A DNA stretch of 64,000 nucleotides, from positions 35,650,001 through 35,714,000 of the forward strand of contig CM060734.1 in assembly GCA_030704615.1 (NCBI GenBank). Reading direction: 5' to 3'. Shown piece after piece: positions 3,650-60,850 of the stretch (position 1 is its first letter; each line of letters begins with the position of its first letter). A program made the translations under genes and the position numbers. The DNA is from Takakia lepidozioides (taxonomy: Eukaryota > Plantae > Bryophyta). The notes under the pieces were generated by a model. The model saw only the letters and a list, made by a program, of their open reading frames with translations, was not told where the DNA came from and made no database searches.

Positions 3650-4385
3650 ATGGCGTCCGTCGCTGGGCAGCATTTCACTATGTCGTGCAAGACAAATGCT
3701 GCGGTGTCCAGCCTGCAGAGGCCGCACCAACGGCAACAACAATGTAGAGCGATGGCCGCTGCCTGCCCTGGAGGTCAGTTGCTACTGCACATTGAGGTTT
3801 CCCTTTGTGGCTGAAATATGTGTGATAGTAATTCTGCCAATTTGAGAGGAGAGGGAGAGAGAGAGAGAGAGAGAGAGAGTACTCAATAAACCTTGCGATT
3901 CATTTGCAGGGCGGGCATCGTTGTGCGGCAGTGGAATTACTAACAGTGCACAATCATGGTTTGCTGGGGATGTAAGGGAGCTAACAGCAGCGGTCCAGTT
4001 CACTGCCCCAGCAGTGGGCAACCGCAGGCCAACAGTGGTGATGGCAAAGCCCACCATTCAGTTCATAAGAGGGATCGATGAACAGACTGTTCCTGATGTA
4101 AAGCTTACGCGGTCCAGGGATGGGACCAATGGTGTAGCGACGTTCGTGTTTGACCAACCGTCAGTGTTTGATTCCTCGAGGGAGCTAGGAGATATCACCG
4201 GCCTCTACATGCTTGATGAGGAGGGTGTATTGTCATCTGTTGACGTAAGCGCCAAATTCCTTAATGGGAAACCGGCAAAGATTGAGGCCCGCTATGTGAT
4301 GCGGAGTGGGAGGGATTGGGATCGGTTTATGCGGTTCATGGAGCGGTACGCTAATGAGAATGACCTTGGTTTCGTCAAGAAATGA
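3650..4385 (+). CDS. PSB28: Photosystem II assembly factor Psb28, chloroplast precursor; join(3650..3773,3910..4385)
   Basis: Mature domain [32 protein letters not shown]...[12 protein letters not shown]. Phase-1 GT-AG intron 3774-3909 restores an in-frame Ser/Ala-rich transit peptide ([10 protein letters not shown]...). Confidence 0.95.
3844..3879. repeat. (GA)n microsatellite in the psb28 intron
   Basis: Direct read. Confidence 0.9.
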
Positions 4386-25030: not shown

Positions 25031-25329
25031 AAATTGCAGGTCCAATTGATTTTTTCACCTATGGTTGTTTTGCATGCAATTACATAGGGGTTGAAATCTC
25101 AAAATTGACAAGAGAAAATGTGCCTCCAAATGAAGTACTTTTTTTTCTACAAAATTTTTAAAAGCCAATGGTGGATGTGTGTATGTAATGCTCACACGCC
25201 ACAAGGTGAAGTGCTTAGAGGTGTCTTCCTCTCCCATCTCTCTCTTCCAAGTTGTAAATAAGGCTCCCACATTCTGGCAGGGGTTATTATGAAGGTAAAG
25301 ATTTAAAATTGAATGAAATGTGGTGTCGT

Positions 25330-28954: not shown

Positions 28955-30085
28955 CACCTCTTGGCCCTTTTCCAGGGCTGCCAGGTTTGGACACGCACTG
29001 CAAACGCACACAAACGTGATGTCGTTGGGCTTCACTCCTTCCCCTATCATTTGCTCATAGGTCTCCAAAGCCTCCATCCCACGCCCCTGTTGTGCATACC
29101 CCTGCAAGCATCGTGTATTACAACACCACATCTTGTTCAGCCATAGTGTTGACATACATGTCCACCAGGGCAATGTTTAGGATGACATCTGGTACAATTC
29201 CAGCTTTGACGATGTCACCATGGACCTCTTTCCCCTTTTCCAGAGCTCCCAGGCTTGCACACACATTGCAAACACAAACAAATGTGATGTGGTTGGTTTT
29301 CACCCCTTCGCACACGTTTGTTCATAGGTCTCCAAAGCCTCCATCCCGCACCCTTGCTGTGCATATCTAGCAATCATCACACTCCACGACACCACATCAC
29401 GTTCAGCCATACTGTCAAACACTCCATTTGCATCCTCGATGCACCCACATTTGACATACATGTCCACCAGGGTAGTGTTCAAAATGACATCGGGTACAAT
29501 TCCAGATTTGATAATGTCACCATGGACCTCTTTGCACTTTTCCAGGGCTGCCAGGCTTGCACACGCATTGCAAATGCAAACAAACGTCATGTGGTTGGGC
29601 TTCACCCCTTTCGCACATCATTTGCTCATAGGTCTCTAAAGCCTCCATCCCGCGCGCTTGCTGTGCATATCCTACAATCATCGCAGTCCACGACACCACA
29701 TCTCGTTCAGCCATACTGTCAAACACTCCATACATGTCCACGAGGGTATTGTTCAGAATGACATTTGGTACAACTGCAGCTCTGACCATGTCGCCATGGA
29801 CTCTTTGCCCTTTTCCAGAGCTGCCAGGCTTGCACACGCATTGCAAATGCACAAAAACGTGATGTGGTCGGGCTTCACCCCTTCCCCCATCATTTGATGA
29901 TATGTCTCCAAGGCCTCCTTACCACGTCCCTGCTGTGGATACCCTGCAAGTATCGTGTTCCATGACACCACATCTCGTTCAGCCATAGTGTTGAAAACTC
30001 CCTTCTCATCCTTAATGCACCCACATTTGGCATTCATGTCCACCGGGGTAGTGTTCACAATGACATCTGCAACCACTTTAAGCCT
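28955..30085 (-). pseudogene. PLS-class PPR repeat array, degenerate
   Basis: About four ~300-bp triplets: LVDMYxKCG..VFDSMAERDVVSW..GYAQQG..EALETYEQM..GVKPNHITFVCVCNACASLAALEKG, with frameshifts. Confidence 0.9.
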
Positions 30086-34259: not shown

Positions 34260-35160
34260 TGTTTGCAGTAGCCTTGTGGCCATAGATGCGCGCACATTGT
34301 GTGTGAGAGAGATTGTACTCATAAGACGTTGTTTGCCGTAGCCTTGTGGCCATTGACCCCGCGCCCAGTTTGAGCGGGAACAAAAGGGACAAAACCTACC
34401 TCTGTCAGGGGCTGACGTTGGTAGTAAGACTTACCTTCATATAAAGAATTAATCCGGGGTTTTCAGATATACTCTAGAAATCCCTTCACACAAGCATCAA
34501 TCTGCTGTGTGTGATTTGCCTCTAAATCAGATTTATCCAGCAGGGTCAAGACTTGCGGATCCAGGTCCAGGACCTTGAGAATCTCTTCTACTCTCTTCTG
34601 CCAGGACTTAGCCTGTTTGACAGGGCGGTCCTGTTTCCAAGATATAGAGTTGATTAACTTATGATATCTGGTGTTGGGCATATGTTGCAGCTGACCCCAC
34701 CATCTGACCTTGAATTCATCTCGTCGGGAGCTTAAGGACGGAATGCCAAACTCACCCCGAACAGCCACATTGGTTGTTTTGGAGCATGCTGACATACACT
34801 CCTTAAGCACCCCCACTTGAATGGATTCTAGAGACTTAGCCTGGTTGGAGTTATCAACCCATATAGCAGATCCGTACTCCAAGGCAGGTCTAATAACGCG
34901 GCAAAGCATGGTTTTCTTAACCTCAGAGTTGCCCCCCTGCAGTGGAAAAATTTAGTGAGCCCCAGAGCTTTGCCCTTGCCAGTTTGAACAACTTTCCGGA
35001 TGTGTGCATCCCAATTACAATTGGAGGAAAATTCAACTCCCAGGTAAGTGTAGGAAGGGAGGACCGGGATCTCTTGGCTACCCCACTGCCACTTAAGATC
35101 ACTTCCTCCCTCTCCTCTGTTGTTGAATGCTACCACTGCACATTTGCTGACAGTAGCCTC
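34260..35160 (-). mobile_element. 5'-truncated LINE (RT thumb region plus 3' tail)
   Basis: ANVSKCAVV..YTYLGV..WDAHI; IRPALEYGSAIW..LESIQ..VAVRGEFG..LSSRR; frameshifted. Confidence 0.8.
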
Positions 35161-37139: not shown

Positions 37140-37960
37140 TGACATGTATGCCCTGGTGGACATGTATGCCCAATGTGGGTGCATTGAGGATGCAAAGCAA
37201 GGAACTTATGTGTACTCTGTTTATATACTGGGTTGGCAGGGAGGCTTTGGAGATTGTGAATGGGTGATGCTTGCAGGGTATGCTTGCAGGGACTTGGTAT
37301 GGAGGCTTTGGAGACCTATGATCAAATATTGATGGGGGAAGGGGTGAAGCCCAACCACATCACGTTGCAGCATACTGGTACTTCACAGCCATGGCGGCTC
37401 TCTCAGCCCCTCCATTTTTTTTTCTTTTGGTTTTTTTGGCGCTGGGAGAGAGCAGCAGCTCTGCTGTCTCCTCCCCCTTGCTTATGCCGATCGTTAAAGG
37501 GGAAATTGTCATTCTGAACTCTGCCTTGGTGGACATGTATGCCAAATGTGGGTGCAGCAAGCCTGATGTGAAGGGAAAGTTTGACAATATGGCTGAACGA
37601 GTTGTGGTATTTTGGAGTGCCATGATTGCAAGGTATGTGCAGCATGGGTATTAAGGCTTTGGAAACATAAGAGCAAATGATGTAGGAAGGGATGAAGCCA
37701 GACCAGGCCGTCATGTTCATTTGTTTTTGTAATATGCATATGCGAGCCTAGCAGCCCTGGGAAGGGGCAAAGAGGTTTATGGTGACATTATCCAAGCTGG
37801 AATTGTACCAGATGTCATTCTGAACATTCCCATGGTGTATATCTACGTCAAATGTGAGCCTGGCAGCCATTAAAAGGGCACAAAGGTCCATGATGACATC
37901 GTCAAAGCTGGAGTTGTCACTCTAAACACTGCCTTGGTGGATATGTATTTCAAGGCAGCC
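37140..37960 (+). pseudogene. PLS-class PPR remnant
   Basis: ALVDMYAQCGCIEDA, GVKPNHIT, LVDMYAKCG, with stops and frameshifts. Confidence 0.85.
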
Positions 37961-40340
37961 CTGGAAGTGGATGTCACTTTGGGTGACAAGGTAGCTGGCA
38001 CCACCATTCTCTGGAACTACCTGAATTTATTCTCAAAATGATTTCTAATGTTCTCTTGACATGTCCACGATAGTGCTGGACCTAGCTGCACAGCAGATTA
38101 TCCTTACTCAATGACTTCAGTTGGGCAATGATCTATGGATATGGCAACATGGCCCTCATGTTGGTCATTTGTAGAATGTGGCCAAAACTTGTTTTGCAAA
38201 TCACTCTTGATATAAAACCAGTTTTGAGCCATCCAAATGTTTTTGGTTCCGACCTGTATTTGTATTCTATGTTTTGTTGTATTTGTAATATATTTTCAAT
38301 GCAGTGCAGCGAATCAAAAAATTTAAACACAATATCCACTAATTCACATACGTACAGATATAAACTAAAAGTAAATGAAAAAAACGAAATAACAGTAATA
38401 AACAAAAAAATCCAAATATTAAATAAAAAGCCTCCCAATATATATTATATTATATTTATATGTATATATGTATATACACCTCCAGAGTAAAACATATTTA
38501 CTAAAATGTGTCCTCTTTTACTGCTTCACAGTAGAATATTACAATATACAAAGTCAAGGAAACTCAATATCACTAATTTACAGTCAAACCATATACTAAA
38601 CATCATGGAACATAGTAAATATGTTCCACTTTAGTTAAACCACTTTACTACACGTCATGCATCCACGTCACTCTCCCCTTAAGCCACTCACTACACGTCA
38701 TGCATCCACCTTATAATTCAGTTAAACCACTTTACTACACGTCATAGCACGTCATAGCCACGTCGCATCCACGTCATATTGTGCTGCCTACACGTCACCC
38801 CCTAGGTTTTACTGTCACATTTCACTGTCAGAACCTGGCATCTGGATTCGACTGCTTGACTGAAACGACTTGACCTTTGTCACGCATGTTCGATTATGGA
38901 GGCTGGGAGTAAAAATGTCGCAAATGACTAAAAAATGAATCAAATACAGAGTCGAAAAGCCCAACTTGTATTGTAGTGGGACAACGTTCAGTCTATGATC
39001 ACAGTTGTCCAGCACAACATCATAGGCGATTAAACAGTAGGGCAATGAATGAATGAACACCACCAGGCTACAGTATCACGAAAGTGACATGATCTCTTGG
39101 TTACCTGAAGATCTCCGGCAAATGATCTCGTCGTATCAGTGCTGTCCTCGTCTCTGTTATCTGTTTTTCGATTCTTTCATTTTGCCACATTGGCTGTTAA
39201 GATCACTCCAAAACCAAGAGAAAAGGCCACATCTCTTCAATATGCCTCCATGCTTGTGAATCTTGTGGCCCGCACACCTTTCCCGGGGGGCTCCGATGCG
39301 AATCTTTCTCTTCACTTTAATTAAGACGTGTTGTAGTTATTAAGAATGAAGTGTTTTCAGTTCAATGTTTTCCTCATAAGGAAACCGGCTAGAAACTTGG
39401 CATCTGCTCGAAGGTTGACATTCCAAGCATTCCAAGCATTCATCTCTCTGCCGGGTGTCTTGTGACTCGGATACGAGTTGCCCACTTTAGGGGTAGAAGT
39501 CAACATTGGTTTTCTGTGTTCCAGCTATGCAGAGTTCAACATCGGAATTTAGGGACGACTCTGATAACATGATCTCATGGCCGAGTTTCATGAGAAGTAA
39601 AACAGGCTGAAACAGGTCGAAAAAGAAGGTGCCCTCACCACATTGCGTGAAACCCCTCCGCGCTCGAGCACGCCCTTCCCCGCGCTGCTTTTCGGGCATT
39701 TCAGGCAGGTTCCAAAGAAATTGACGACGACGATGACGTGTCTACGATGATGTGGCGACGAAACGTGGCGACGATAACGTGGCACTATGACATCCTATTC
39801 CTGCTCTACGCTAAACTAGCTTCCGACCTTTGATCGTCGCTAGAATAACAAACTTTGCCCTACCAATATGGTACAATCCATACTAGTGTAAAATGAGCCC
39901 AGTAACCTTTCTCACACCATGTCTAGTCAGCATGCCACCTCTGAGTCCCTTAATACTACCAATGTGACATAATTTATACTAGTGTAAAATAAGCCCAGTA
40001 ATATTTCTCACACAATATATAGTCAGCATGCCACATCATATAGTTCCACCCCATTGTGTGGATTAACTTATACTACATGACTCATTTCACACCGGTGTGA
40101 GATAAGCCTTGTACACTGTTGGACACTTTCTCGGTCAACAACCGTTGACCACAGAAGATGTGAGCTTGATGTACACTAGTCTACACGAAGCGGCTTTTCT
40201 TACACTGGCTCATTCTACACCATCAAAATTTTACAGGGGTGTAAAATTTTGTGTAAGAAAAGCCAGGTGTGAACTACCCTTGTTGTGTATTAGTATCATG
40301 TCATGGTTTTAGTCATGGTTAACTAGAATTACCTACTTTT

Positions 40341-43010
40341 AGTAACTAAGACATTTTGGATATTTATATTTGTATTTTGTGTGTTGGGACTTCATTTGGT
40401 CTCACATGCCAAGTGAGGTATCAAACCTCACTTGGGACATGGGGATGGGTTTTCCCCTTGTGAGTGTTGAGGAGGGCTCATCTTCTTGTAGTTGAGCCTC
40501 CATGAGCCTCTCCCACCTCCATAGCTCTAGGTATTGAGAGGGAGTGTGGTGAAGGCTTTGTAGGGTGGATTCCTTTAGCAAATGTGCCCTTGGCTTGACT
40601 TAGTTTATGTGATTGAGTGGATTCATGAGTGGAGTGTTTCCCTTGTGTTCACTTTCATTATCACTACAAGAAGATCACCTTATGCTTGTGAGTGCGGAGT
40701 GTAAGGATTACTTTAGCACTTGTGTCGGTGTACACCAAGGAGCGAGAGAGCTAGGAAAAGCTCAAGTATTTCACAAGGCTTGCAAGGAAAGGTACTTGTG
40801 GTGTTACACCAAGGTGTTGGAGAGCTCAAGAAGGAGCTTGTTTGCCACAAGATTTGCAAGGATTACAAGAGGGAAGTCTTGTATGTGTGGAAGCATGGAT
40901 TCTAGGGATTGAGAATCATTTCTATGCATTATGGAATCAATGATGTGTGCCATGGCTTGTGGAGAGCAACTAAATGATTGTTAGTACTCATTTCACTATC
41001 AATCTAGGGTTAAGCAAGCTCAAGTGTGGATGCTGTGGAAGAGAAGCCAAGGAGCTACATAGGCTTGGGCTCGAAGACAACAATGGCAAGCACTTGGAGA
41101 GCATTAGGAAGCTCAAGAGGTTTGAAGGGGAGCATGTGAAGAAGTCTTCCAATCATGGTTGGAGAACAACTTGTGGAAAGTCCTAGAAGAAAAGAGATTG
41201 TGGCTCAAGGCATGCATAACAACTTCAACCATGTGACAAGACAAGGAAGGGGAAGGTGCTCATGTACTCATTCCCTTTTGGCTTAAGTTTTGTGGTGGAT
41301 GGTTGATCAAGCAAATGATGCTTATGTGGAGCATGCTTCCCAAGTGTGGCTTCCAATTTCAAACTTGAGAAGAGCTAGAAAATAAAAGGAGCAAGTTGAT
41401 TCCCTTGTGTATGAGGTGATGCATATGTGAAGCATGCTTTTGGCTTGAGCTTTGCAATTTCAAGCTTGAGAGGAGTGGCTCTTGAGCTAGCAAGTGAAGG
41501 GAGCTTGAATGACCAAGGCTTGAGAGGAGACAAGGCTTGTTGGTTGCCAAAGGAGGTACAAGCTTCATTTTGACTTCCAATGAGAAATTGAGCTTGTTGT
41601 GTGGCCAATGCATTGCTAGTTGAGTTGGAGACAAACTTGAATAGCTTAAGGTGAAGAAGATCAAGGAAATTTGCCTTGGTTAGAGGCGAGTGGACACATG
41701 CAATGGGATTGATTGCAAGTAAATGAGTTAGGCCTCCAAGTTAACATAGAATTCATGGATGCTTGAGGGGATTAAGCATAGAGCCCCAAGGAGCACAAAC
41801 CCTAGCTTGGTAAGGCTAAACCTCAAGGACATAGAGAGGGAAGTGGGTAAAGCCTAGGGGGAAATGAACTACTCTATGAGGGGGAAATGGCTATTCGGAG
41901 GGGGAAATGGCTATTCGAAGGGGGAAATGGCTATCCTAAGGAGAATACAAGGGGAATACAAGGGAAATATGTATAGGCCCAGGGGAATACTGGGAAAATA
42001 CTATGGCATATTCTTAGGAATATTCTTTGGGAACTTTGGGAACTTATTGGGAACTTGAAAACACATTGGGAACGCATTGGGAACATGGTGACATAGGAAG
42101 AGTCCTTGGAGGACCATTGGGAGTCCTTGGAGGACTGTTTGGAGGACCATTGGGAATCCTTGGAGGACTGTTTGGAAGACCATTGGGAGTCCTTGGAGGA
42201 CTATTTGGGGTCCTTGGAGGACCATTTGGAGGACCATTTTGGAGTTCTTTGGAAGACTATTTGGGGTCCTTGGAGGCCAATGTTTGGCGAGCTTGAGGAG
42301 TTTTTGACGACTTGTGTGAGGGACTATTTGGGGTCCTCGAGGGCTAAGTTTTGGAAGGCTCTTGGGACTTGGTGTACTGTTTTGGAGTCCCATTGTGCAA
42401 GGATTGGGAGCCTTAGTGAGATTATTTGAGAGACATATTCTTGATGGCTCCTTGAGAGTTATTTGAGAGACCCTTGAAAAGTAGTCTTGTCTATTGTTCA
42501 AGCAAGAGAGTGTGGAGATAAGGTAGTGGGATGAGGGCATGCTGGGATTAGGAATTGCTTTAGTCTCTCTTCCTTGTAGTCTTTCACCCTCTCTGTAGGC
42601 CAAAACCTTTCCGTAGGTGGAGGCAAGAGTCAGTCCTGGTTTGGGCTGGGGTGTCATTGCAGGAGCGACACTGTGGAGTGTTTTTGGTGTGAGGGAGTTG
42701 TTGTCTTGATTTTCTTGTGTTTGGATCCCCTCCACACCTACATGCTTGACTATGCGCCATGTTAGCTTTGTGTGGGCACTTGTTTTCATAGGAGGCTGGT
42801 CCGGATTTGATCACCAGTCAATCCTAGAGCGTGCCGTCGGTGGTGAGGCTGGGGTGATGACCAAACAGACCATCATTGTTTCTATTATGGTGAGGCTGGG
42901 TTGATGACCAGCAGACCATATGAGTGTTTGCGGTGGATGCAGGTGCAGGTTTATGTTACGAACCTAGTAGTCTAAGCCATAAGCCGCAACAGGTTCTCTA
43001 CCCGGTTACT
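40341..43010 (+). repeat. Putative 5' LTR (~2.67 kb) with internal minisatellites
   Basis: Begins AGTAAC (as does the 3' copy at 50355) and ends GTTACT. GGGGAAATGGCTAT 21-mers at 41870-41940 and ~33-bp GAGTCCTTGGAGGAC..TTTGGAGGACCATTGG repeats at 42100-42280. Confidence 0.65.
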
Positions 43011-43257
43011 TTGTGGAAAGGGGGATTAGAGACAGATTTACAACTGGTGTGGTTGTGAGTTTTCATCACGGAGGTGCCACCAGTTGCTGAGGAGAGTGCC
43101 GGTACGAGCACCAGCGATACTAGTGAGTATACAAGACGAGGTGTGCGGTTTAGGCCACCTTCACCTTCAGTGTCTTCTGAGGAAGGTTCAGACTCGGAGT
43201 CAGGAGGATTCTCGCCGAGGGTGCAAGCCATTTCCGTGCCATTGTTGTGGGATACGA

Positions 43258-44460
43258 TGGAGGAAATGTATGGAGCTACTAAGGTGCTACGACAGTACTC
43301 TGGAGCTGTGGGCACCATCGAGCTTGATAATTTCATACATGAGTTTGATAGTTGGTGTGATTTGCAGCAGATGCACAATCCACAACTGTTTACGCATTTT
43401 ATGGCGTGGAAGGAGCTGTTTTAGCACCTTGAGGGCCGCCTATGGATGACTACCATGAGTTTAGGCGGGGAAATGAGGTGGAGATTGAGGAGTGGCGACA
43501 ATATTGGTCACCTGACTATATCTCCATCACTAGAGGCATAAGGGCAGCGGCGACACCAGCAGCTATACCAACTACCCCAACTGCAAGCACTAGTAGTGGG
43601 ACAAGTAAAGATAGAGCTGGGAAATCCACTCAAGCTCCTGCTGCAGCACCAGCACCCGTGCCTGCCTTTAATCCAGTTCTGGAGTTCTTCGAGGAATTAA
43701 GGAGAAACTACCAGGGGATAAGGACGGAGAAATTGCGGAGTTTGCAAGAGTTCCAACGAAAGCCTACTGAGAGTTTAAGGGAGGCTTACACGCGCATGAG
43801 GCGATTGATAAATGTAACCCAAGGGGTTACGGAAGCTCAAGCAGTCCAATTCCGGTATGGGATATTGGACAATGAACTGAGGAGAAGGGTGCAGCATGCA
43901 ACTGTCCTACAAGTGGACCAACCCACCTTAGCAAACGTGTTTTTGCTGGTAGAGCGGATAGAGCTCAATATGGTGGAGGAGCGAGTGGTCATGGTGGGAT
44001 TTGATAAGGAGACACAACGAAGTGGGGCTCCTAGCCAACAACAACCATTACCCCAACGTGCTCAAGGCAACAAGGGGGCTCAGGTGAAGCCCAAGGAAGG
44101 ATAGAGATGATCTCAATTCCAGAGGTCACTTCCTTCATTCTCAGGCCAACAACAGTCGGGTGTGATATGTCGGGATTGTGGAGGACCCCATGTTAAGAGA
44201 GATTGCCCGGAGAGAGGCAAAGGGCCGGCACAGGCACAGCCTACACAACTACAGTGTGGGCTTTGTGGCAAGTATGGGCATGAAGAGGCCCATTGTTATG
44301 ACTTGCATCCTGAGCTACGGCCAGGCCAGTTCCAAGGAAACAATGGTGGCCGAGGACGAGGCAATGTAGTCCAGAGAGGTAGATGAGGCAGAGGTCGCGG
44401 TGGAGGTCGCGGTGGAGGTCGTAACCAAAACCAGGGAGCACAAGGTCAAGGTCAAGGTCA
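43258..44460 (+). pseudogene. Gag with two CCHC zinc knuckles
   Basis: FQRKPTESLREAYTRM (major-homology-like), CRDCGGPHVKRDC and CGLCGKYGHEEAHC, RGG-rich tail; stops and frameshifts. Confidence 0.85.
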
Positions 44461-45269
44461 TGACCAAGGTATGGTGGATAGGCTTGCCCAGCTAGAGCAA
44501 CGTCTTGCTACCATGGCCATTACATATGTTGCGCCAGCTCCAAGGCATGAGGTTCAATCCCCACTTGCACAACCTCATATGCCTAGGGAAGACCAGATTG
44601 GTATGGGCTTCATGTGTGGAGCCGCACTTGCGGACCATTGCATGTGGACTCTGTAGCTGCTGTCACTCGAGCAGCAACGCGTGCTCCTGAGCCAAGAAGA
44701 GCAGATGTGGATTTTGATCCACAAAGGGAGGAAGCAAGTCGACAGACAAAGCTTCCACAGTCCTTTACATTAGCTGAGATAGTGCCAACTACGCCATCGA
44801 TGGTACCCGCTCGCCCAAGTGTGTTAGAGGTAGAGCCACGAGTGCCAGTGGGGAGAGTTGGTGTGGCTCGGGAAATGCCAGTGGGTGGTGCTGCAAAACA
44901 AGGTGCAGCCAATACATTGTTGGGGGCGGCTACGGCTGTTTGCCAAGCTCCATTGTTTTCTGCAATGACCATTGCAATGCCAGGGATTCGGCCAGCTGCT
45001 GTATTCAGACTAGCAGCTAGACTTTGTGAGAGTGGTGATGCATCGGCACTATCTGCGGGGATAACGGATAATGTGCAGTGCATGGATGCCCTGGACTCAA
45101 AGGTGAAGATAGCCACAGCTGCACCATGGCAAGCGACAGCTGCAAGGTTGCAAGAGTTGCCAGTTAGACCAGCCATTGAGCGTAGTATGATGACTCTTGG
45201 AGTAGTCCTGGTGGACAATCAGGATGAAGTGTTTCAATTGGGTGGCCCAACCGAGAGGAGGTTTAGGCC

Positions 45270-45580
45270 ACTGCGGGTTTTATTGGACTCGGGAGCACAA
45301 CCATTGATGTTGGGGAGAGCAGCAATTGCAGGCTTGGGCCTCACAGAGGCGGATTTGGAGCCTTGCCCTTTCCAAATTCAAACATCTTTGGGTGGTTCAG
45401 AGAAGGTGCGAGGGATTACACGCCATGATCTCTTCATTCGATTACAGCCGGATCATCCTACGGACGGCTCAGTCATGAGAGCTAAAAGCCATTGTTACGG
45501 ACGCGATGTCCTATGATGTGCTTGTTGGTGGGGCTGTGTTGTACCCCATGGGCTTTACTTTGGACTTTTGGGAGGAAACG
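45270..45580 (+). pseudogene. Retroviral-type aspartic protease
   Basis: VLLDSGAQ catalytic motif; YDVLVGG end motif after a frameshift. Confidence 0.85.
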
Positions 45581-45994
45581 ACATCCTACAGGCCGGAATG
45601 GCAGTCAGGAGATGGCCGACGTGCACTGCTCCCAGTGCGGTTTATTGGGAATGTAGCGGTGGATCATAGGAACATGATGCCCACATTGGTTGCATTCTCA
45701 GAGGTGGTGGCTTGGGGTGGTGAGCTCTTGGAGGAAAATAGCCATGCAAATGTTAGGCCACCACCTGATGAGGACAAACAATTGGCATATAAGGCTGATT
45801 TGCTTCCTTATATGTCTGTTTATATACCACTATGGGGTACAGTTGGGAATCTGCATCGAGTAGCAGGCGAGTGTGTGCACCAAGCATGACAGGAGGCCTA
45901 TCCATTTGTGAGTGAGGGGAGTTCAGTGAAATCACCTGGACCTCCTCAGTTAGCTCCTTTGGACACAATGCCCATTATCTGGCAACAACCTGAC

Positions 45995-47015
45995 TCAGGC
46001 ATTTGTCTACTAGACCTGTTTGGAGGCATGAGCACTGGGCTTGCAGGAGTGTTGCAAGCAAGAATCAAAGTACGCAAGTACTTGTATGTGGAGAAGGATG
46101 AGATTGCTCGGCGTGTTTCCATGCGCCATGTTGCCTTGCTCACACATCAGTATCCTGAGTTGTTGCCTCTCTCAGCAATTCAAGGGTACCAAAAAGCCTT
46201 ACCAGTAGACATTACCTTGCTGAGGGCGGATGATTTGGACTGGCATGGTGCCATTGACTTGGTGATAGCTGGATGGCCTTGCCAATGGGACTAAAGCAGT
46301 AATTTGCAATCTATACTGGTTCATACATTGAAGCATCTTTTTATACGAAGCTGGTTTGACTGCTATTGGTTCCGCAGGTCATGGGAATGGCTTGCATGAT
46401 GCACGATCGCATTTGTTTTGAGAGATGTTGCGAGTGTTGCGTGACTTGCAAGTGAGGCAAGTGAAACCTTCAGCTTACATCCTGGAAAATGTTCCTCTCA
46501 TGGGGGATTCTCAGGCCAAGGTTATGGCCAGTGTGCATCAGATCCGGTCATGGATTGGACCAGCTGTATTGTTGGATGCAGCTGCAGTGGGTTCACGGGC
46601 ACATAGGCCTAGGTTGTGGTGGACCAATCTTGCACCACCAAAGTCGCTCAAGAGAGCCTATGATTCCATTCAACGGCCACCCAACCTCACGGTTGAGGGC
46701 ATTTTGGACCAAGGGAGGCAACCACAGAGAGCGCGACATGATGATTGTCCACCTTTGGCAGTGGTCAATCGAGTGGGGCAGCCACGTGCAGCCTTGCCTA
46801 CGCTCATGAGCTTTCTCTCGTCTCATGCTTTTCGAGACAATGGTCCTGGGTTGATTTGGGACAGTGTGCTACAGCAATTGGTGGAGCCCAATGCGGATAA
46901 ACGAGAGCGGGCAATGGGATTTTCCACGGGGCACTACAGCTGTGCCAGCTCTGTTAGAGGCATCACGACGCCAGGTGTTGGGTCAGGCAATGGATCTCAA
47001 TTGCTTGACATGGGT
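45995..47015 (+). pseudogene. C5 cytosine DNA methyltransferase domain (DNMT3-like) inside pol
   Basis: Motifs in order: I LDLFGGMSTG, II YVEKD, IV IAGWPCQ, VI ILENV, VIII HRPRLWWTN, IX RERAMGF, X RRQVLGQAMDLN (frameshifted). Insertion after PCQ and TGA at 46419. Confidence 0.92.
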
Positions 47016-47544
47016 CATTTGGCTTGTGTATGGCTGAGCAACGGAGATTGCAAGCATTGGTGGCTACTTCCACACTCCCATTGGATATTGCACCCTCTCT
47101 GCCAACCGGGACGGTGGAGGCAGTGAGTGGGGGTGAGCACAGGATCATGGGGTGCAAACACCCATGGTTGATGTGGGATGAGATGCGCAAAGAGAGAGTT
47201 ATTGGATCTCTCAAGCAGCAGTACGAGGAGTGGGGAAAGCCATACACTGAGGATCAGTTGGAGGCCAAGGTGGCTAAGGTTTTTGAAGAGGTTGACGATG
47301 TTTCTTCCCCAGAGGATGTTTTCAAGGTGGCTATGGCGGAGCAAGTGGAGGCTACGCCACCGTCAGAGTGGGCGGACAAGGCCCAAGAGGTTGCTATCTA
47401 GCAACCAAAGGATTCGTCTCCTATCTCCAAGCCTGGTGTACCCAAGGTTGTAGTCACTGAGGACAATTGGGAACCAGATGTTGGACCTAAAGTCACCGGA
47501 GGAGAGAGACGGAGGATCCAGCGATTTCTAAGGGCTTATAGAAA

Positions 47545-48678
47545 TTGCTTTGCCTTCGGTTTGAAGGATTTGGGGAGTTTGAAGGGTCAGGAGATTATTT
47601 GGCAAGTGACACGCCAATCTTTCGAAGGCCCCACCGGTATAGTGACATGGAGAGATCATTGATCCAGTCACGGACTATGAAGTTGTTCGAAGCTGGACTG
47701 GTAGAGTTGTCAGGCGGGGAGTATGCCTCGGCAACGGTGATGCTAGCTAAGAAGGATATCTATGGCAATTGGGCTGAAAGAAGGATGTGTGGGGACTATT
47801 GTCCTGTCAACCGTCAGACTAAGTCCGATAGATATGCCATGCCAACTCCAGAGGAGATCTTTGATGCCATTGGGCATGCAAAGGTGTTTAGCACATTGGA
47901 CTTGCGATCCGGTTACCACCAGTTGCCAATCAAAGCGGCTGACAAGCAAAAGATGGCATTCTGGGGGATTGACCAACATGGGAAGGATTGCTTGTACCAA
48001 TGGCGGTTCCTACCGTTTGGGTTGAAGAATGCTCCTGCAGAGTTTCAGAGGGTCATGGATATGATTCTTGCGGGGCTAGACTTTGCTCGGTGCTACATTG
48101 ATGACATCATCATCTTTAGTGCTACGATTGAGGAGCACGAGAGACACCTTCAGATGGTGTTTGAGCGCTTGAGAGCGCACGGGTTGAAACTGCACCCCGG
48201 AAAGTGCAAGTTCTTCCACAAACAGATTGAGTATCTGGGCCACATGATATACCCTGGAGGATTGGGTGTTCAACAGACAAAGGTGGAGGCCATTGCATGC
48301 ATTCCATGCCCCATGGATGTGAGCATAGTTCGTGCTTTCACGAACAATGATGCCGAGGCGAAGTATAGTTCTTATGAAGGGGAGTGTCTGGCTGCAGTAT
48401 GGGCAGTGACACATTTTAGATGCTACCTCTATGACAATCTCTTCACTCTTGTCACGGATCACCAACCATTGAAGTGGTTGATGGAGTCAGACACGCTTAC
48501 AGGGAAGCTTGCACGGTGGGCACTTATGCTTCAAGAGTACGACTTCCAGGTGGTGCAGCGAGCCGGAATAGTCAACCGGGATGCGGATGGATTGAGTTGC
48601 AATCCATGCACAAGTGAGCTTGATGATACAAGAGCTCGTTGGCATGGTGAGACGGACGAGGAGATGGTGCCAGGATGA
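47545..48678 (+). pseudogene. Gypsy reverse transcriptase and partially deleted RNase H
   Basis: RMCGDY, LDLRSGYHQ, LPFGLKNAP, YIDDII, YLGH; RNase H C-half (YSSYEGECLA, TDHQPL, ADGLS); the region between VRAF and NNDAE is missing. Confidence 0.95.
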
Positions 48679-48959
48679 TACGCATCTGCCTTTTTATGCA
48701 TTCTAGCAATGGGAGCTCAAGCTGGTCCATCCCATGTGATTGGTCATAGAGATAGTGTGCATGACGATCTAGAGATCAGTGAGGAGCTTGGTGGTGCTAA
48801 GGATGTACATGAAGATGCAGCAATGTTGGCCTACCTTCGTACTGGAGAGACAGCAGCCAGTGTGACTGCTAATGAGAGAGATCGGATCCTACAACGAGCC
48901 AAGAGGTTCAAGTGGGAGGGGACTCACTTACTCCGAGTATGGGAGGATGGATGAGTGAG

Positions 48960-50238
48960 GATTGTGCTTCATCCAACACAACGAGCGCGATTGGTACGCC
49001 ATGCCCATGAGGAGTTGGGATATTTTGGGATGCGGCGCACTCATAGTTTGCTGCAAGGACAGTACTGGTGGTGGGGCATGCACACGGATGTGCAATAGTT
49101 AGTGGCAAGGTGCATGGTGTGTGATAGAGTGCGGGCTTCTTTCAATGCACTTACTCCACAATTGCATCCTTTATCCATTATGGGTTTGGGCTATCGTTGG
49201 AGTCTTGACTTCGCAGGCCCATTGCCACTGACGATTCGCCATAACAAATATGTGTTGGTGATGGTGGAACATTTCTCCAAATGGATTGAATTGGTGGCAT
49301 TGCCTGACAAGGCAAGTGAGGGGGCTGTGTATGCATTCTTAGATCGAGTGCTTAGCCAATTTGGTGCTCCAGCCGAGGTACTCACGGACCAGGGGAGAGA
49401 GTTCTTGGGGGAGTTTCAGGCTTTGTGTGAGCAAGCCTTGATAGATCACCGCACTACTTCTCGGGATCATCCCGAGGCTGATGGCTTGGCCGAGAGGGTT
49501 GTGCAAACAGTCAAACGAGGCTTGCGCAAGTATGGCTTGCAGAAGGGACACTTGGGAGATTGGGACCTTCAGCTATCTTGGTTGGGCATGGGCTACAGGT
49601 TTAGCAAGCAAGCATCACTTGCCTCGTTTTCGCCTTATCTCCTTCTCTTTGGCCGAGAGCCAGATTTGCCTGCATCTATTCGCAGGGAGACTGCAGTAGT
49701 CCTCAACCTTGATAATCCGGATGTGTGGACACAAGCATGTGCCCAGTGGGCAGAGTTGTTCAAGAGAGTTATGCCTATGGCTTTTGAGAACCTTGCTATT
49801 GCCCAACACCGAGACACATTGAGGTACGCCACTATACGTGGAGAGGGATATCGGCCAGGTGTTCGGCATTTCCATCCTGGGGACTATGTGTATCTGCAGC
49901 AGACAGCACCTACGACCTTGGATGTCACAACAGGTCGTGTGATTCTAAGGGTCCGGGAGGTGTTGCCTTCAGGAGTGTTGATTTTGGAGGGTCGAGATGG
50001 CATGGTATGGAAGGACTATGTGCGCAATTGTGCGCAATGTCACCTTCCACATGTGGATGGGAGGATAGATCCCAACCTTGCAGTGGTACTTGCAGGGTTG
50101 CGTTGCATGCTATGTGGGCATGCTGGTGGTGCCGCGACCATGTTGGTGTGTGACAAATGCTCAAGGGGGTGGCACATGGGATGCTTGACACCACCACTTG
50201 AGGAGGTTCTTAGTGGAGAATGGTTGTGTCCATGATGC
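48960..50238 (+). pseudogene. Integrase with C-terminal PHD finger
   Basis: HHCC zinc motif, DFAGP, TDQG, AERVV core; then CMLC...MLVCDKCSRGWHMGCLTPPL...WLCP*C (C4HC3). Confidence 0.93.
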
Positions 50239-50759
50239 CTTGGATAGAGGTAGTGGGGCATGACAGTGGTGAGGTTGACAAGTGATCCAAGGTCTAGCTA
50301 ACGGGAGTTCAATGCCATGGACACCCAATTGAAGCCATGGATTGCAGGAAGGCGAGTAACGATGGGGCTATATTTATATTTTGTGTGTTGGGACTTCATT
50401 TGGTCTCACATGCCAAGTGAGGTGTCGAGCCTCACTTGGGATATGGGGATAGGTTTTTCCCTTGTGAGGATGGAGGAGGCTCATCTTCTTGTAGTTGAGC
50501 CTCCATGAGCCTCTCTCACCTCCATAGCTCTAGGTATTGAGAGGGGGTGTGGTGAGGGCTTTGTAGGGTGGATTCCCTTAGCAAGGGTGCCCTTGGCTTG
50601 ACTTAGTTTATGTGATTGAGTGGATTCATGAGTGGAGGGTTTCCATTATGTTCACTTTCATTATCATTGTGGTATAGCTTTCGAGGACAGTGTGCTTAGA
50701 TTGTGTGGTGGACAGCGATATATGTTATGGCACGATGCTTAGGTGCACAACAGCCATTA

Positions 50760-53441: not shown

Positions 53442-55196
53442 ATGGGACGCACCACTCAAATTGCTCGCATGTCGACTGGGGGCCCAGTGGGGCGCAAGGA
53501 GATTACTTCCCGTCCCGTGACAGTAAGTAGGATATACCTCTCTCCTGATATGCCAGAGCTTTGGATTGTCTGAACAGGAACTTTTGTTCCATTCATTTAG
53601 ACATTTCAGAGAAGAGGAGACCAGTTTGTGGTTGAATGCAAATGTGGCACTCCCTAACAACTGTCGCAGGTAAACGCATTCTACCTGTATCTAGGATGTT
53701 GAGGATGACTCTTTTGCTTCCTCCCTGCGTCTAAATTTTTTCGTCTTTCATGTACATGGCCCACCCGTTGATTATTTGCTTAACTTTTCAATGCTTATGT
53801 GGGAGTCAGAATTCACCGTGGAAGTCAGATTGCAGACGTTTGACAGCAGTCCTGGAAAAAGCAAATAAGGTACACTCCTTCCTGACTCTTTCGTTCTCCA
53901 TCAGCCCTATTCCTGCCCTCTTCACCGAGGTAACAGATTCAAGCTTGTTTTAATGTGGTTTGCGTACTGTGAATAATGATAGGAGGTGGACAATCTCAGA
54001 AAAACTAACAAGAAACTGCGAACCCACGTTAGGGGATTGTGGAGGATTCATAAGTCTCGGAGGGCCACTTGGATGAGGCTGCTCCGACAAGCCTCAAAAG
54101 TATGTTGCGCGCTCTCACTCTTCTTTTCCCTTGCAACAGTATGAGAACGGCTAGAATTATCTAGAACTAAGCGGAATCTCGTTATGCGTTGTGGGACTTC
54201 GTCAGCCGTGTAAAGCTACAATTGCACTGGAATTTTGATCCGATGGCTCATATATCGTGTTGGGCCATATGCCCACAAGGCTAGCTCAAGCACAACTCAA
54301 AAAATTCAATAATGGGACCCAGCGTTTGAGCTCAGCCTCAGACTCCAGTCTTACAGGACAACTTCATCGACAACGCAGTGATTTGCACAATGTAGTGTGT
54401 CCACCCTGTTCACATTTTCCTCTTTACTCACCAAACATTATTCTCTGCATGACTTATCAGGGTTTGGTGGGTTTGACAGTCGGGTCGCTCAATCTTGGGG
54501 TTGAGAGGCAGATGGTGGGAGCATAGGTTTCTCAGGTTGCGCCATGCAAGCAGTGGATATGGAACTTCCTTTCTTTACCTCCTGCCCCTGCAGATAAGGG
54601 GGATACCACTCTAATACCCTGGCAGCATTTTCATCCGAAGACCAAAAATGCTTGACCTTCACAAAGGGCTCAGCTTCGTGCAAGGATTTAGGCCCTGGTT
54701 TCGTTCATTTATCTGTTTTTGATATGGACTTTCCGCAGATGTTTTTGGGTATCTTTTTCTCCCCATTTTGTCTTTCCCTTCCTTGTATGTTACTCTAGCT
54801 TGAAGTTGGTATTTTGAAGGATTCTGTCCAACATTGTATCAATATTCGCAGGTGCATGATCATCTTTTAAGACAGAATGTGAAGGTTGTGGCTGAACATG
54901 TAGAGGAGAAGGCGACGTGGGTGGAAGCATTGCAGGAGGCAACAAAAGTGGCACAGGAATCAGGCTGTGTAGTGTGTTTCCAAGAGATTGGTGGGATAAA
55001 ACCAAAGAAGGGATCCGTGACAAGGCAGGTTAAAAAACCCGACATACGGAAAAGAGCATGTCTCATCCCATGCAATCATGCGAGTTTCTGTACTGACTGT
55101 GCTTCCAGGGAGTGGAAGACAAGTGGCAAGTGTCCCCTGTGCAACATTAAATTGACTAAAAAGCCCTTAACACTTCCGACTATGATCCATTTTTAA
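53442..55196 (+). CDS. Histone-H3-tail-like / coiled-coil / RING-HC protein; model join(53442..53522,53578..53669,53836..53869,53983..54099,54852..55196), ~222 aa
   Basis: ACAATGG start and in-frame GT-AG splices (first intron only 55 nt; extra exons in 54100-54851 possible). Intact RING CVVC..PCNH..CTDC..CPLC in the last exon. Confidence 0.6.
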
Positions 55197-55741
55197 CTCC
55201 TTTTGTCTGAGAGGAGGGCAAAAACAAAGACCAGCTTGGGCTTTTACGAAAGGTCACCTTCCCCCCTAATCCAAACCCTGCAAAACAAGTTTAGACAGAT
55301 GGAATCAAAGCATTTGTAGGCAGAATTGCGGGGTTGCACCCTTATGTTCAATTAACGCCTGGAGACATACAAAAAGAGGCCGCATTGGCAGGTGTAGAAG
55401 CAACATAGGATTTAGCATTCGCGATTGTGTGCGGGGATCCAAGCTGGGTGACCATCATGCACATGCTGATTGGTATGGGTAGCCCAGGTTTGCTGCAAAA
55501 AAGGTGAACCAAAGCATCTCCTCTACATTGTTAACTATTTACATTAGGATTCCATTCGATCTCTTTGAATGTTCAATTTTAGCCCCAATTTCGGGACTGC
55601 CAACTAGGTCTAGGATCTTTTGCACACTGTGCAAGCAGCGTATGATACAGCCCACCCTCAGAATTGGGCAGTAGTCGCAAGACGAACTAGCTCTTAGCTA
55701 CACCGGCTTGAGCCCCGGAGTCTTCTTCTGCATGCCGCTCC

Positions 55742-58491
55742 TCACCTAGCCAACATAAACTTGCCATCTTGCTCTATCTTGGACTCTAGTTCCGAGGGCT
55801 TGGCAACGCATTTGACAGGCAGAGTAGCGTTAGGGCTGGTGATGACAGCCGACACATCGGAATGACGAAGTTGGCTCGTGTTGCTTGCGTTGCCCGCAGG
55901 GCACCGTTTGTTAAGCCATTGGATAATGTCCCTGAACACGAGGTCTATATTCTCGTCCGGCTCTCCGGAGGTCAAGCCGTGCCACATGCCTGGATAGAGT
56001 ATTAGTTCCTTGTCAAAGCTGTTGGCTTTCTCATATAGCTCTTTACTACATTGTGGATCATTAACTTGGTCATCTTCTCCATGCACCACAAGAAATGGCA
56101 AGGTCACCTGTCAGATTCATATCCAATATGCAGTTAAAACACGCTCTGCCTCACTCACTGGCGCAATCTTAAAATGATATTTCTCTCCTTATGTGAGGAA
56201 GTGTATCGCAAATAAGGATTGTGGACGCCAACAAGTCCGCGAGCAGATGCAAAAATGTTTCCATCGTCAACCAACAAGCTGGCTCATTGCTCATACCTCG
56301 TCAAGCCGTTTTTCGAGGTCCGAACTGACATCCAACAGCTCCGCTGCAGTCTTCAATCGTGGTCTGTCTTGGTAAATATAAGGATTTGCTCGAATCTGCC
56401 AGACACCCATTTCTCATTAGTTCTGATACACATGAGAGTAATCCTCCAGATTTATCAATTGTACATCTTCGTAAGTCCAGATGCAAGCAGTCCCGTATTA
56501 TCAACAAGGTTTCTGTTAGTAAGCACTAAAATTTGTCATTTCTTTGCAACCAACAGTGAAATTTGTACCTCTTCTCTTTTCAGAAGATCTTTGAACGCGC
56601 TATCGATCACGTTTTTGGTTGGAACTATTTTCCAGGTCGGAATATAGTTCGCCAACTTCTTCAAAATGTTTACCACTATTGCAGGTGGCTTCAGCTTCTC
56701 AGATATCTGCAACACATGTGAAGATCAATCTTCCGTCCTTCGGCACCATCGGCTCCATATCTCAAATACTGACGCGTACGTAGACTCCAAGTATAACAGA
56801 TCAGTACATAACCGTACCTTACACATGGGGGCAACCAGCACTGCACCATTCCACTCATGTGGTTCTTTTCTATGGATACGGAGTGCCACTGCCCCGCCCA
56901 TGGACTCTCCATACAGAAACCTGGCCTTGTTTTTGTACTCCTCTCTCTCTGCACAACATACATACACATGGACTTTACACATGAACGAGCTTCTTCAAGA
57001 GTGCACGTCTCCTTATCAACTTCGCTCAAGTGACAATATCCATATGTTAGAACAACCGAAACTTGCAGCCGCATTAAATCCACTCCACGCAATTTAAATG
57101 ACTCCACTGAAACTTTGTGAGAGGATCAAGGATTATGAGCCAGAGGAAAGTGGTTACCTCTCACATCTCTGAAAAAGCTTTGACAATCATCCACCAGGTT
57201 TTGAAAGTTTTCAATGTAACTCCATAGTCCCTCCGACTTCCCATGCCCCTCGTAGTCAATGCCAAACACTGCATAGCCTGCTTGCGCAAGCCGCACGCCC
57301 GTATCTGTGGCACAGTGCACGTATGTACATAAGTTACGAGGAATGGATACACATTTACTCAACCTAGTGCAGATTTGCAGGGTTTCATTGTAAAAAACTT
57401 GAAATCAAGGTCAATGTTAGAAGCTGTTTTCTGAACAAATTGTCGTTCACTCGCATAAGAACCTATACATGTCACCTTGATTTCGACGACCATCACCAAT
57501 TTGTGAGGTTTTTCTCGATATCCGGGAACGAAAGTTCGTACAACTATTCCACTTATGAATGTCGATAGGAAGCAAACGATCCTGCAGCAGCTTCTGAAAT
57601 AGTCTAATGTACCTACGGGATGTTGGATTTCGTGGAAATTTTAGTTACCTTTCATGAATACACTCGTCTCCATGGAATATCCTGAATCCACAGACACAAA
57701 CACATTATGTAAAAGACCAGTTGACATATATATACACACTCAACTCCATGATGATTTGTAGACTCTGAAGCTGGTAATTTAAAATCAGCTGACAGTCTAC
57801 GTTTATGAATGTGGATTAATCACCACAAGCCTAACTGGTCATCCCCCAGGGTCATCAAAACCCAAGAAAATACCGTGGCACAGGAACACGAGCGCCTTCA
57901 GTTCCTGACAAGCAGGAAGCCATCGACAGGTAAACAGCTTCACGCCCCTTGAGTTCCGTATGAATTCCTGCAAAGTAAACTGTAATCTTAGTCCCATGAT
58001 ATCAGATCCATCTTACATGTACTAACTATCCATCACGAGTAAGATCTGTAATTCGAGTTCGTAGCCTGTATAATTCTAGTACGAAATTCTCAACATAGCA
58101 TGAACATGTGTAAGCAGCACCCTCGGCTCGAAACTATGCAAACATCCCTTTGTTCAAGTGCTGCTGTACAGCTGCAGATCGACACTGTGTAATGAGGTAA
58201 CTTGGAATGTGATGGCTCGGCTCCATGACGCAGCATTATAATGTCACGTAAGTGGTCTTACAACAATACGCTTCTGAGTGTGCCTGCTTTTGTCTCGAGA
58301 AGCTGTCACACTAGCCTAAGCACTAACTACTTGAGGCAGTTATGCAAAGCCAGTTTCAATTTGCGCCGGGGACCATCCATAAAAGGTGGACCTAAAAGTT
58401 AAAAGTGGAACGCTCAAGATTGAGTAGGACTGAAACGTAAGGAAAATGCACATACCTCTCCATACTTGATTCCAGCAAAACTGTCTACCAT
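55742..58491 (-). CDS. Monoacylglycerol lipase / caffeoyl shikimate esterase-like alpha/beta-hydrolase (8 exons)
   Basis: MVDSFAGIKYGE, NSRGVKLFTCRWLP, LCHGY, DYEGHGKSEG, GESMGG nucleophile elbow, LVVHGEDD, YPGMWHGL; canonical splice sites. Confidence 0.93.
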
Positions 58492-60005: not shown

Positions 60006-60850
60006 AGAGGAAGGCCCCTGTGTCGGACCCCCCTTGAATTTTATGCCCCTTGGATTTTACCGCCTTTGGGCCGGGGCGTAAAATTCAAGGAGCGCCCTCC
60101 ACTCCGGGCGCCCTAGACTGAGGGCCTTCCTCTATACGTAAGGTAATAAGAGGAAGACCCCTTGTTCAGGCGCCCCTTGAATTTTATGCTCCTTGGATTT
60201 TACCGGGCCCTTGGCCCCGGGCAGAAAATTCAAGGAGCGCCCTCCACTCCGGGCGCCCTAGACTGAGGGCCTTCCTCTATACGTAAGGTAATAAGAGGAA
60301 GACCCCTTGTTCGGGCACCCCTTGAATTTTATGCTCCTTGGATTTTACCGGGCCCTTGGCCCCGGGCAGAAAATTCAAGGAGCGCCCTCCACTCCGGGCG
60401 CCCTAGACTGAGGGCCTTCCTCTATACGTAAGGTAATAAGAGGAAGACCCCTTGTTCGGGCGCCCCTTGAATTTTATGCTCCTTGGATTCTACCGGGCCC
60501 TTGGCCCCGGGCAGAAAATTCAAGGAGCGCCCTCCACTCCGGGCGCCCTAGACTGAGGGCCTTCCTCTATACGTAAGGTAATAAGAGGAAGACCCCTTGT
60601 TCGGGCACCCCTTGAATTTTATGCTCCTTGGATTTTACCGGGCCCTTGGCCCCGGGCAGAAAATTCAAGGAGCGCCCTCCACTCCGGGCGCCCTAGACTG
60701 AGGGCCTTCCTCTATACGTAAGGTAATAAGAGGAAGACCCCTTGTTCGGGCGCCCCTTGAATTTTATGCTCCTTGGATTCTACCGGGCCCTTGGCCCCGG
60801 GCAGAAAATTCAAGGAGCGCCCTACACTCAGGGCCTTCCACTACACGTAA
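60006..60850. repeat. Tandem array of ~6 x 145-bp fold-back units
   Basis: AGGAAG anchor at 60008, 60151, 60296, 60441, 60586 and 60731; near-identical units. Confidence 0.97.

Follow-up and report, generated by a model that had tools for sequence, protein, structure and literature searches.

A DNMT3-like methyltransferase in a bryophyte Ty3/Gypsy retrotransposon family with a conserved stop codon and split terminal repeats

Introduction

Why does a transposon keep an enzyme of a silencing class? The question has stood unanswered since 2018, and retrotransposon-borne cytosine DNA methyltransferases (DNMTs) are known from algae with few genetic tools. It is raised again by a stretch of 64,000 nucleotides from the moss Takakia lepidozioides (assembly GCA_030704615.1, contig CM060734.1, positions 35,650,001 to 35,714,000 of the forward strand; hereafter the window), in which a first-pass annotation placed a long terminal repeat (LTR) retrotransposon encoding its own DNMT. 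While such elements are already known in algae, no land-plant carrier and no such stop codon was found in the literature searched. Since Marchantia polymorpha has unbroken genes of this kind as well as methylation mutants, methylomes and transformation, the question becomes directly testable.

A decayed element in the Takakia window

It was found that the window element is a decayed Ty3/Gypsy copy lying at 40299–50752 on the + strand. The order on this strand is gag (from 43257), protease (PR), DNMT (45998–47045), reverse transcriptase (RT), RNase H (RH), integrase (INT) and a PHD finger ending at 50238. The gag-PR-RT-RH-INT order, the Ty3-type RT and the DDE integrase are those of Ty3/Gypsy elements, and the RT-RNase H of an intact relative, L069, is closest to Ty3. 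The annotation as a retrotransposon was thus right, but the ends are split repeats rather than two ordinary LTRs.

Pfam searches found gag, RT, RNase H, rve and PHD in the element, and a protease match below threshold. The gag region (43257–44560), with two Cys/His knuckles, is broken by a frameshift and stops; its match to PF03732 (E 7.6e-5) is just under the cut-off, and it also aligns by tblastn to P0007, a Marchantia protein (Mp4g09160). The aspartic protease (45200–45660) has LLDSGA at 45280–45297 and a frameshift near 45480 (PF13650 E 0.012, below the cut-off; also matched by P0007). Downstream lie the RT (47462–48339; TLDLRSGYHQ at 47893, YIDD at 48094; PF00078 E 6.8e-32), an RNase H remnant lacking its first part (48340–48640; PF17917), an integrase with a zinc-binding part and internal stops (48930–50050; PF00665 E 3.6e-15), and the PHD finger at the integrase C-terminus (50101–50238; PF00628 E 4e-9).

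As had been noted at first pass, this copy is dead, because it has accumulated an insertion, stops, frameshifts and a loss of codons. An insertion of about 86 bp (46286–46372) directly follows the catalytic PCQ of the DNMT; it is absent from other copies, as seen from joints that skip it in three read runs and from the gap against P0007. Within the DNMT, the frame is further interrupted at 46419 (stop) and near 46928 (frameshift). At 48339/48340, some 95 codons of the RT connection and RNase H have been lost, corresponding to residues 317–411 of the second open reading frame (ORF2) of L069, and a longer contig from the host's reads spans this gap. Further stops and frameshifts are found in gag and integrase. 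When the window was compared with other copies in the reads (run X1), changes from A to G (176) and T to C (144) outnumbered those from G to A (44) and C to T (61). The window thus more often has A or T where other copies have G or C, as expected from the decay of methylated DNA.

The methyltransferase

All the C5-methyltransferase motifs reported by the first-pass annotation lie in order between protease and RT on the + strand: I (LDLFGG, 46010–46027), II (E, 46085–46096), IV (AGWPCQ, 46268–46285), VI (ILENV, 46479–46493), VIII (AHRPRL, 46599–46616), IX (RERAMGF, 46902–46922) and X (LGQAMDL, 46978–46998). The residues agree at 12 of the 12 scored sites, the order is canonical and unrearranged, and the catalytic Cys, Glu and Arg are present. 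The PF00145 profile, proposed earlier as a check, gave no match at E ≤ 1 on the two broken window pieces, but intact relatives passed its cut-off (E 1.8e-13 for L069 ORF1 and 8.9e-9 for P0007, to which the window pieces are 67% identical). Using a 172-residue piece of the window DNMT as query, I found 81 relatives at E ≤ 1e-3, with names including Marchantia, Calypogeia, Riccia and Sphagnum; thus, the match is not due to chance. No vascular plant or hornwort is named among the protein matches listed.

Which kind of methyltransferase is it? Among solved structures, the DNMTs of intact relatives matched DNMT3A best by sequence (E 2e-11), followed by DRM-type enzymes (1e-4) and HaeIII (2e-4). In a Foldseek search with a model of the L069 DNMT (mean predicted confidence, pLDDT, 78), all 32 of the rows listed were DNMT3A, DNMT3B or DNMT3C (best E 7e-17, TM score 0.66). 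The element enzyme is therefore predicted to be DNMT3-like, in agreement with the earlier suggestion, rather than of DRM, DNMT2 or bacterial type, a class assignment made from the sequence and fold of intact relatives.

The catalytic residues are conserved far beyond Takakia. After removal of close duplicates from 238 domains, 179 distinct domains were left, of which 178 keep the motif IV Cys and all 179 the motif VI Glu, while each of the two motif VIII Arg residues is kept in 174. The ratio of nonsynonymous to synonymous substitution rates (dN/dS, by NG86) between intact families is 0.14 for L069 and L070 and 0.12 for L068 and L069; between the window and moss copies it is about 0.1, near saturation. 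The DNMT is under purifying selection between families, contrary to what a chance capture of the gene had been expected to show.

Distribution and relatives of the family

Is the window copy a single case? It was revealed that the DNMT-bearing family is real, selected and widespread in bryophytes, occurring in many copies and many genera. M. polymorpha has unbroken Gag-PR-DNMT genes (e.g., Mp4g09160, MpVg00370 and Mp5g06330) annotated as hypothetical host proteins, and a Marchantia cluster of 18 members was obtained, 15 of which are listed. Four of these 15 (P0386, P0387, P0388 and P0391) lie on the male V chromosome. In the available text of the literature searched, the inventories of bryophyte DNMTs do not count these element-type Marchantia genes.

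Among metagenome contigs, the best 80 of 207 related stretches were kept, which biases this set towards loci with a similar DNMT. Their order is gag-PR-DNMT-RT-RH-INT-PHD in all cases where the domains are present and not rearranged. Most of the loci belong to one peat-moss family, whose first frame ends like the Sphagnum jensenii protein P0080. A complete, unbroken element sought since the first pass was found on a metagenome contig (L069, positions 976–8226); its DNMT is about 50% identical. In Takakia itself, copies were examined through read contigs: 46,682 contigs of run X1 fell on the window element, and the summed read depth, which reflects many copies and is not a copy number, was 65,000–492,000 over the coding part versus 718 in the last flank bin.

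Among 1.84 billion representatives scanned with HMMER for the DNMT, 249 matched at 1e-30, and the best 150 of these were listed. Where the fetched DNMT proteins have recognisable neighbours, these are retroelement domains, while 122 proteins contain little or nothing but the DNMT. Long flanks are present in 24 of these, none of which has a companion domain of host DNMT3. One of the 24 (P0521, 1053 residues) has a PHD finger and a PCIF1_WW-family domain together with a DNMT akin to the element's, and P0474 has a related DNMT beside a Copia-type gag domain (PF14223). Neither host DNMT3 or DRM proteins nor any named as Klebsormidium are among the matches listed or retrieved; the nearest relatives are element-borne DNMTs, which speaks indirectly against a grouping with a host gene.

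Two architectures were found. One is PR-DNMT-RT, in bryophytes and others. In the other, RT-RH-DNMT-INT-PHD, all domains are in one frame (P0053, P0069, P0251, P0276 and about 130 similar proteins), and the named hosts are the chlorophytes Chromochloris and Haematococcus. P0251 and P0256, polyproteins of this second type, also have a G-patch domain match. No description of chlorophyte DNMT3-bearing Gypsy elements was found in the available text of the literature searched.

The DNMT and RT phylogenies proposed earlier were built from row subsets of the 179-domain set without an outgroup, so that direction and origin are not readable from them. The two trees are congruent. The PR-DNMT-RT elements are split from all others by a single branch in each tree (SH-aLRT support 98 for DNMT with 44 rows and 99 for RT with 28 rows), the window groups with the bryophyte elements (support 100 and 92, respectively), and L069 is sister to the bryophyte clade in both.

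A conserved stop codon between DNMT and RT

How is the DNMT connected to the RT? In 47 loci, the DNMT end and the RT start lie no more than 700 nt apart, in the same frame in 38 and shifted by indels in 9. Every translation across this gap shows a stop and then Gln. I surveyed 62 sequences for this stop; 12 lacked the downstream landmark and 50 were scorable. All 50 have a stop followed by CAR (TAG in 35 and TAA in 15), 17 or 23 codons before the landmark. Although the script sought a stop-Gln pair first, the fixed position is independent of that choice, and decay stops inside the domains are followed by CAR in only 24 of 747 cases.

In the window, the site is TAG CAA CCA (47399–47407). It fits UAG-CAR-YYA, the tobamovirus readthrough consensus (PMC3159437), and the exact consensus is also found in L035, L068, L069 and L070, so that four families are represented. 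In L069, 1369 codons (stop to stop) are followed by TAG CAG TTA and another 1047 codons; this is the only stop in 2,417 codons. The first frame of L069 contains PF00145, and the second contains RT, RNase H, integrase and PHD. Many unbroken database proteins, including Marchantia genes, end 57–181 residues after the DNMT. The possibility that the stop at 47399 arose by decay was rejected, given its conserved position across loci and its being the sole stop in L069.

From these sequences, the DNMT is predicted to close a Gag-PR-DNMT frame and to belong to the Gag-level product, and the RT is likely made by readthrough of the conserved stop; with readthrough, the DNMT would be present at the Gag level. 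The first-pass annotation had taken the DNMT as a part of pol and not a nested gene. It is indeed in the same place in many families, but it closes the Gag-PR-DNMT frame.

Split terminal repeats and a predicted self-primer

The ends of the window element share only 300 bp (93% identity), and the host reads hold joints from the right end to the left start. The 5′ terminal repeat A (40299–40665) starts with TGTCATGG and ends with ATCA. Its part at 40365–40663 is 93% identical to 50369–50666, and its start was placed from the read joints and from the TGTCATG with which A starts in moss relatives. A partial 3′ copy of A was located by end-to-end comparison (50369–50667), followed by the terminal repeat B (50668–50752; TGTGG...CACAACA). 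B forms the right end of the element, judging from the drop in read depth, the B-to-A joints of other copies and motifs matching the moss relatives.

In the moss relatives, the full arrangement A-coding-B-A-B is found in L029 and L067; B-A-B also closes L012 and L044, and 10 loci have just one B at their end. B ends with ACGACA in these relatives. Two identical LTRs, one per end, were not found; the ends are A ... B-A-B or A ... B, and the ordinary-LTR reading is ruled out by these split ends of the relatives. A purine tract, likely the polypurine tract, precedes the first B (B1). In the window it is at 50345–50356 but is not followed, as it is in relatives, by B1 and the first 66 bp of the second A; in the moss loci, the sequence before B is GGGGGGCGAG. 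The B-A joint is a palindrome, CA-GC-TG, also found in L068 and, with one change, in L069. The relatives have the TG...CA ends and short target duplication of Ty3/Gypsy elements: of 7 complete copies, 5 show an exact 4-bp duplication, and in the other 2 it differs by one transition. B1 and B2 are 91–94% identical within an element and 88–94% between elements, values that do not show B2 to be copied from its own B1.

No tRNA genes were found in the window. Directly after A lies a predicted primer-binding site (40666–40677), and a predicted self-primer inside A (40480–40491) is its perfect 12-nt complement, which was matched in 0 of 2000 shuffles. The two pair in the minimum free energy fold of a stretch with ends of my choosing. 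A complement of 10–17 nt, different in sequence but in the same position and register, is present in 11 of 21 5′ ends of the peat-moss family, two pairs of which are the same locus. Folds of the self-primer stretches, again with chosen ends, gave z scores of −2.5 and −2.0. A complement inside A to the bases after it is seen in two families with different sequences, and would allow self-priming of the Tf1 type if the transcript started there. The candidate CACTACAAG after repeat A was considered as the end of a CACTA transposon and rejected, since an equivalent sequence follows A in moss relatives and pairs inside A. The 5′ untranslated region is long (40678–43058), with tandem repeats of 12–54 bp, and strongly depleted in CpG (observed/expected ratio 0.17 over 40365–43058).

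The conserved stop, the self-primer, and split ends accompanied by ordinary target duplications point to a replication route, as yet undescribed, of an integrase-based element.

The PHD finger

No chromodomain, the feature of chromoviruses, was found in the window element or L069, which have a PHD finger instead. The best solved matches of this finger are CHD4, KMT2D, DPF3, KDM5A, ATXR5 and BHC80. Many such PHD fingers read unmodified H3K4, while K4me3 readers have Trp two residues before the His; in the element fingers this residue is Gly in 72 of 75. The ADD domain of DNMT3 reads H3K4me0.

What the methyltransferase may do

I consider, with some confidence, that this moss and liverwort Ty3/Gypsy family makes a Gag-PR-DNMT product and, through a leaky conserved stop, an extended one with RT-RH-INT-PHD, and that the DNMT is packaged at the Gag level, where it likely methylates the element's own new cDNA. 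Low-rate readthrough would add RT, RNase H, integrase and PHD, and the element protease would release the DNMT. Self-primed reverse transcription would yield B-A-coding-B-A, which would be circularised and then opened by the integrase at the first CA-GC-TG palindrome. The DNMT would act before or during integration, and the PHD finger would steer the complex to unmodified H3 tails. A new copy would thereby arrive marked like host heterochromatin, doing less harm to the host and hidden from surveillance of unmethylated DNA.

Several observations weigh against parts of this scheme. The CpG depletion of the intact L069 (0.32–0.38) cannot separate methylation by the element from that by the host. 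The enzyme of KnitGypsy-Dnmt3, an algal counterpart, did not methylate DNA in yeast, a result its authors call inconclusive (PMC5890265, section 10). Among close, decayed copies of the peat-moss family, the dN/dS of the DNMT (0.56–0.66) exceeds that of the RT (0.32–0.51). The read depth over PR-DNMT is about 2–7 times below that over gag and RT/integrase, which could reflect relatives that lack the DNMT or are more diverged. The exact UAG-CAR-YYA is found in only 5 of the 50 sites; the other 45 are from one peat-moss family and mostly read CAA CCC and then ATG, 15 of them with TAA, so that reinitiation in this family is possible. As for the ends, the window flanks (ATCA/GCCA) do not match and show no target duplication, and the circle model predicts some A-B-A-coding-B copies, while B precedes A in none of 19 5′ ends.

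Does the enzyme act in trans instead? It may act inside the nucleus, where integrated copies or the chromatin of the host would be its targets, and so restrain the element itself or reshape the host methylome. The abundant first frame ends with the DNMT, which would give far more enzyme than cDNA needs, Marchantia has many unbroken Gag-PR-DNMT genes, and host-level effects have been proposed for Symbiodinium (PMC5890265, section 11). Still, I regard this as unlikely: fusion to Gag would place the DNMT in the particle with the cDNA, the DNMT of chlorophyte relatives is found between RNase H and integrase, and the Klebsormidium methylome is described as ordinary despite such elements (PMC5890265).

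The ATG codons, mostly two codons past the stop in the 45 peat-moss sites, and the 15 TAA stops would fit a second frame expressed by reinitiation, from an internal start or from a spliced RNA, with the DNMT and RT as separate proteins. I hold this as improbable, because the window, L035, L068, L069 and L070 lack the ATG and have the exact UAG-CAR-YYA, families about 50% identical share the frame and the Gln codon, and a change from TAG to TAA is expected from the decay of methylated DNA.

Less probable still is an active enzyme with another job and no role in chromatin, which would methylate RNA or an RNA:DNA hybrid or shield the cDNA from nucleases or deaminases of the host. Both ideas were raised in section 11 of PMC5890265, and the negative yeast result with the Klebsormidium enzyme would agree with them. 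However, the best match by both sequence and fold is DNMT3 and not DNMT2, the DNMT3-type enzymes of SymbioDIRS do methylate CG (PMC5890265), and the bryophyte DNMT travels with a probably histone-reading PHD finger.

That the DNMT is a neutral passenger, acquired by a single capture from the host or lying in a nested insertion, might be read from the broken window copy, whose pieces PF00145 misses, and from the high dN/dS of close moss copies, but it is largely refuted by the same position in many families and genera, the invariant catalytic residues, the dN/dS of about 0.13 between intact families, the congruent trees and the lack of host-DNMT3 companion domains in the 24 long-flank proteins.

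Starting again from the packaged, cDNA-methylating enzyme that I favour, a wider scenario can be drawn, although I hold it as doubtful. One ancient Ty3 lineage of green plants may have carried an active DNMT3 all the way from chlorophytes to mosses and liverworts. On the way the enzyme would have left its place between RNase H and integrase and come to close the Gag frame, where a leaky stop would serve as dosage switch. The element would integrate through a palindrome-opened circle and deliver pre-methylated copies into H3K4-unmethylated chromatin, as a mobile counterpart of the DNMT3 and ADD pairing. If so, de novo methylation in Marchantia would have a source that has been overlooked, namely the unbroken Gag-PR-DNMT genes, of which there are dozens.

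Comparison with known systems

The closest described system is KnitGypsy-Dnmt3 of Klebsormidium nitens, which has A-coding-B-A-B repeats and whose DNMT, RT and RNase H are stated to form one ORF (PMC5890265; de Mendoza et al. 2018). Like it, the bryophyte family consists of Gypsy elements with an unrearranged DNMT3-type domain under purifying selection. Its Gypsy domains are likewise combined with split repeats of DIRS type (A-coding-B-A-B), which are complete in L029 and L067 and lack B1 in the window. The B-to-A joints in the host's own reads add to the likeness of the ends. The bryophyte family differs in its land-plant hosts and in a DNMT that shares the phase of the RT but is split off by the conserved stop. 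The PHD finger, self-primer, target duplications and chlorophyte relatives do not appear in the available text on KnitGypsy-Dnmt3, where "PHD" has 0 occurrences (PMC5890265). The bryophyte family probably works like KnitGypsy-Dnmt3 and, to judge from the description of the latter, is probably its kin. In the literature searched, the name "KnitGypsy" occurs in PMC5890265 alone.

Other retrotransposon-borne C5 methyltransferases are known from SymbioDIRS-Dnmt3, whose enzymes methylate CG in yeast, and SymbioLINE-Dnmt (PMC5890265), and from the EpiLTRs of Cymbomonas and Euglena (bioRxiv 10.64898/2026.05.21.726589). As described there, these belong to other retroelement classes or have DNMT4-related enzymes with DAM and a chromodomain, and their hosts are algae or protists. 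REM1 and Gypsy-7a_cRei of Chlamydomonas likewise have a Gypsy polyprotein with PHD in the green lineage, but a methyltransferase is not mentioned in the available text, and the LTRs of Gypsy-7a are near-ordinary (PMC9940879). Self-priming instead of a tRNA primer is likewise predicted for Tf1/Sushi and the plant Tcn1 chromoviruses, in moss Ty3 elements; these have a chromodomain rather than PHD or DNMT, and the main text of the survey contains neither "PHD" nor "methyltransferase" (PMC6317226). An in-frame UAG also gates the replicative enzymes of tobamoviruses and of murine leukaemia virus gag-pol (PMC3159437, PMC5009743). The context in the bryophyte family is of the tobamovirus type, but its stop follows protease and DNMT, unlike one directly after Gag.

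Is the land-plant family already described? No DNMT-bearing retroelement of a land plant and no such conserved stop is described in the available text of PMC6453930, PMC11982613, PMC13398078, bioRxiv 363937, PMC6317226, PMC6673714, PMC8557442, PMC9940879 and PMC5009743; subscription literature, including bryophyte genome papers, lay outside this search. Later papers use the term "streptophytes" in their available text and name no land plants there, and their supplementary trees might include bryophyte sequences. The literature search gave nothing joining CARYYA to retrotransposons, self-priming to PHD in Chlamydomonas, or Marchantia to an element-encoded DNA methyltransferase.

Other sequences in the window

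The window contains remnants of other elements. The 3′ end of another Ty3 element lies at 1–3170, with a frame that looks by eye like integrase plus a chromodomain-like part and a repeat of about 520 bp at 1569–2088 and 2531–3042; a DNMT was not seen there. Two probable remnants of non-LTR retrotransposon RTs were recognised by eye (23075–25049 and 34463–34951), and remnants of pentatricopeptide-like (PPR-like) repeats lie mutually inverted at 28958–30067 and 37151–37917. Host genes occupy 3846–8821 and 54804–57404. They comprise Psb28 and genes that, when read by eye, look like a cytochrome P450, a RING-type finger and a monoglyceride lipase. The best match of Psb28 is in Marchantia (73%), but in a 37-row tree, with a few outgroup labels guessed from identifiers, it branches off first within a clade that includes Physcomitrium and Ceratodon (support 98/95), so that this single short gene points to a bryophyte host and probably a moss. 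At 60006–60834, a 145-bp unit forms a tandem array of 5.7 copies that are 96% alike.

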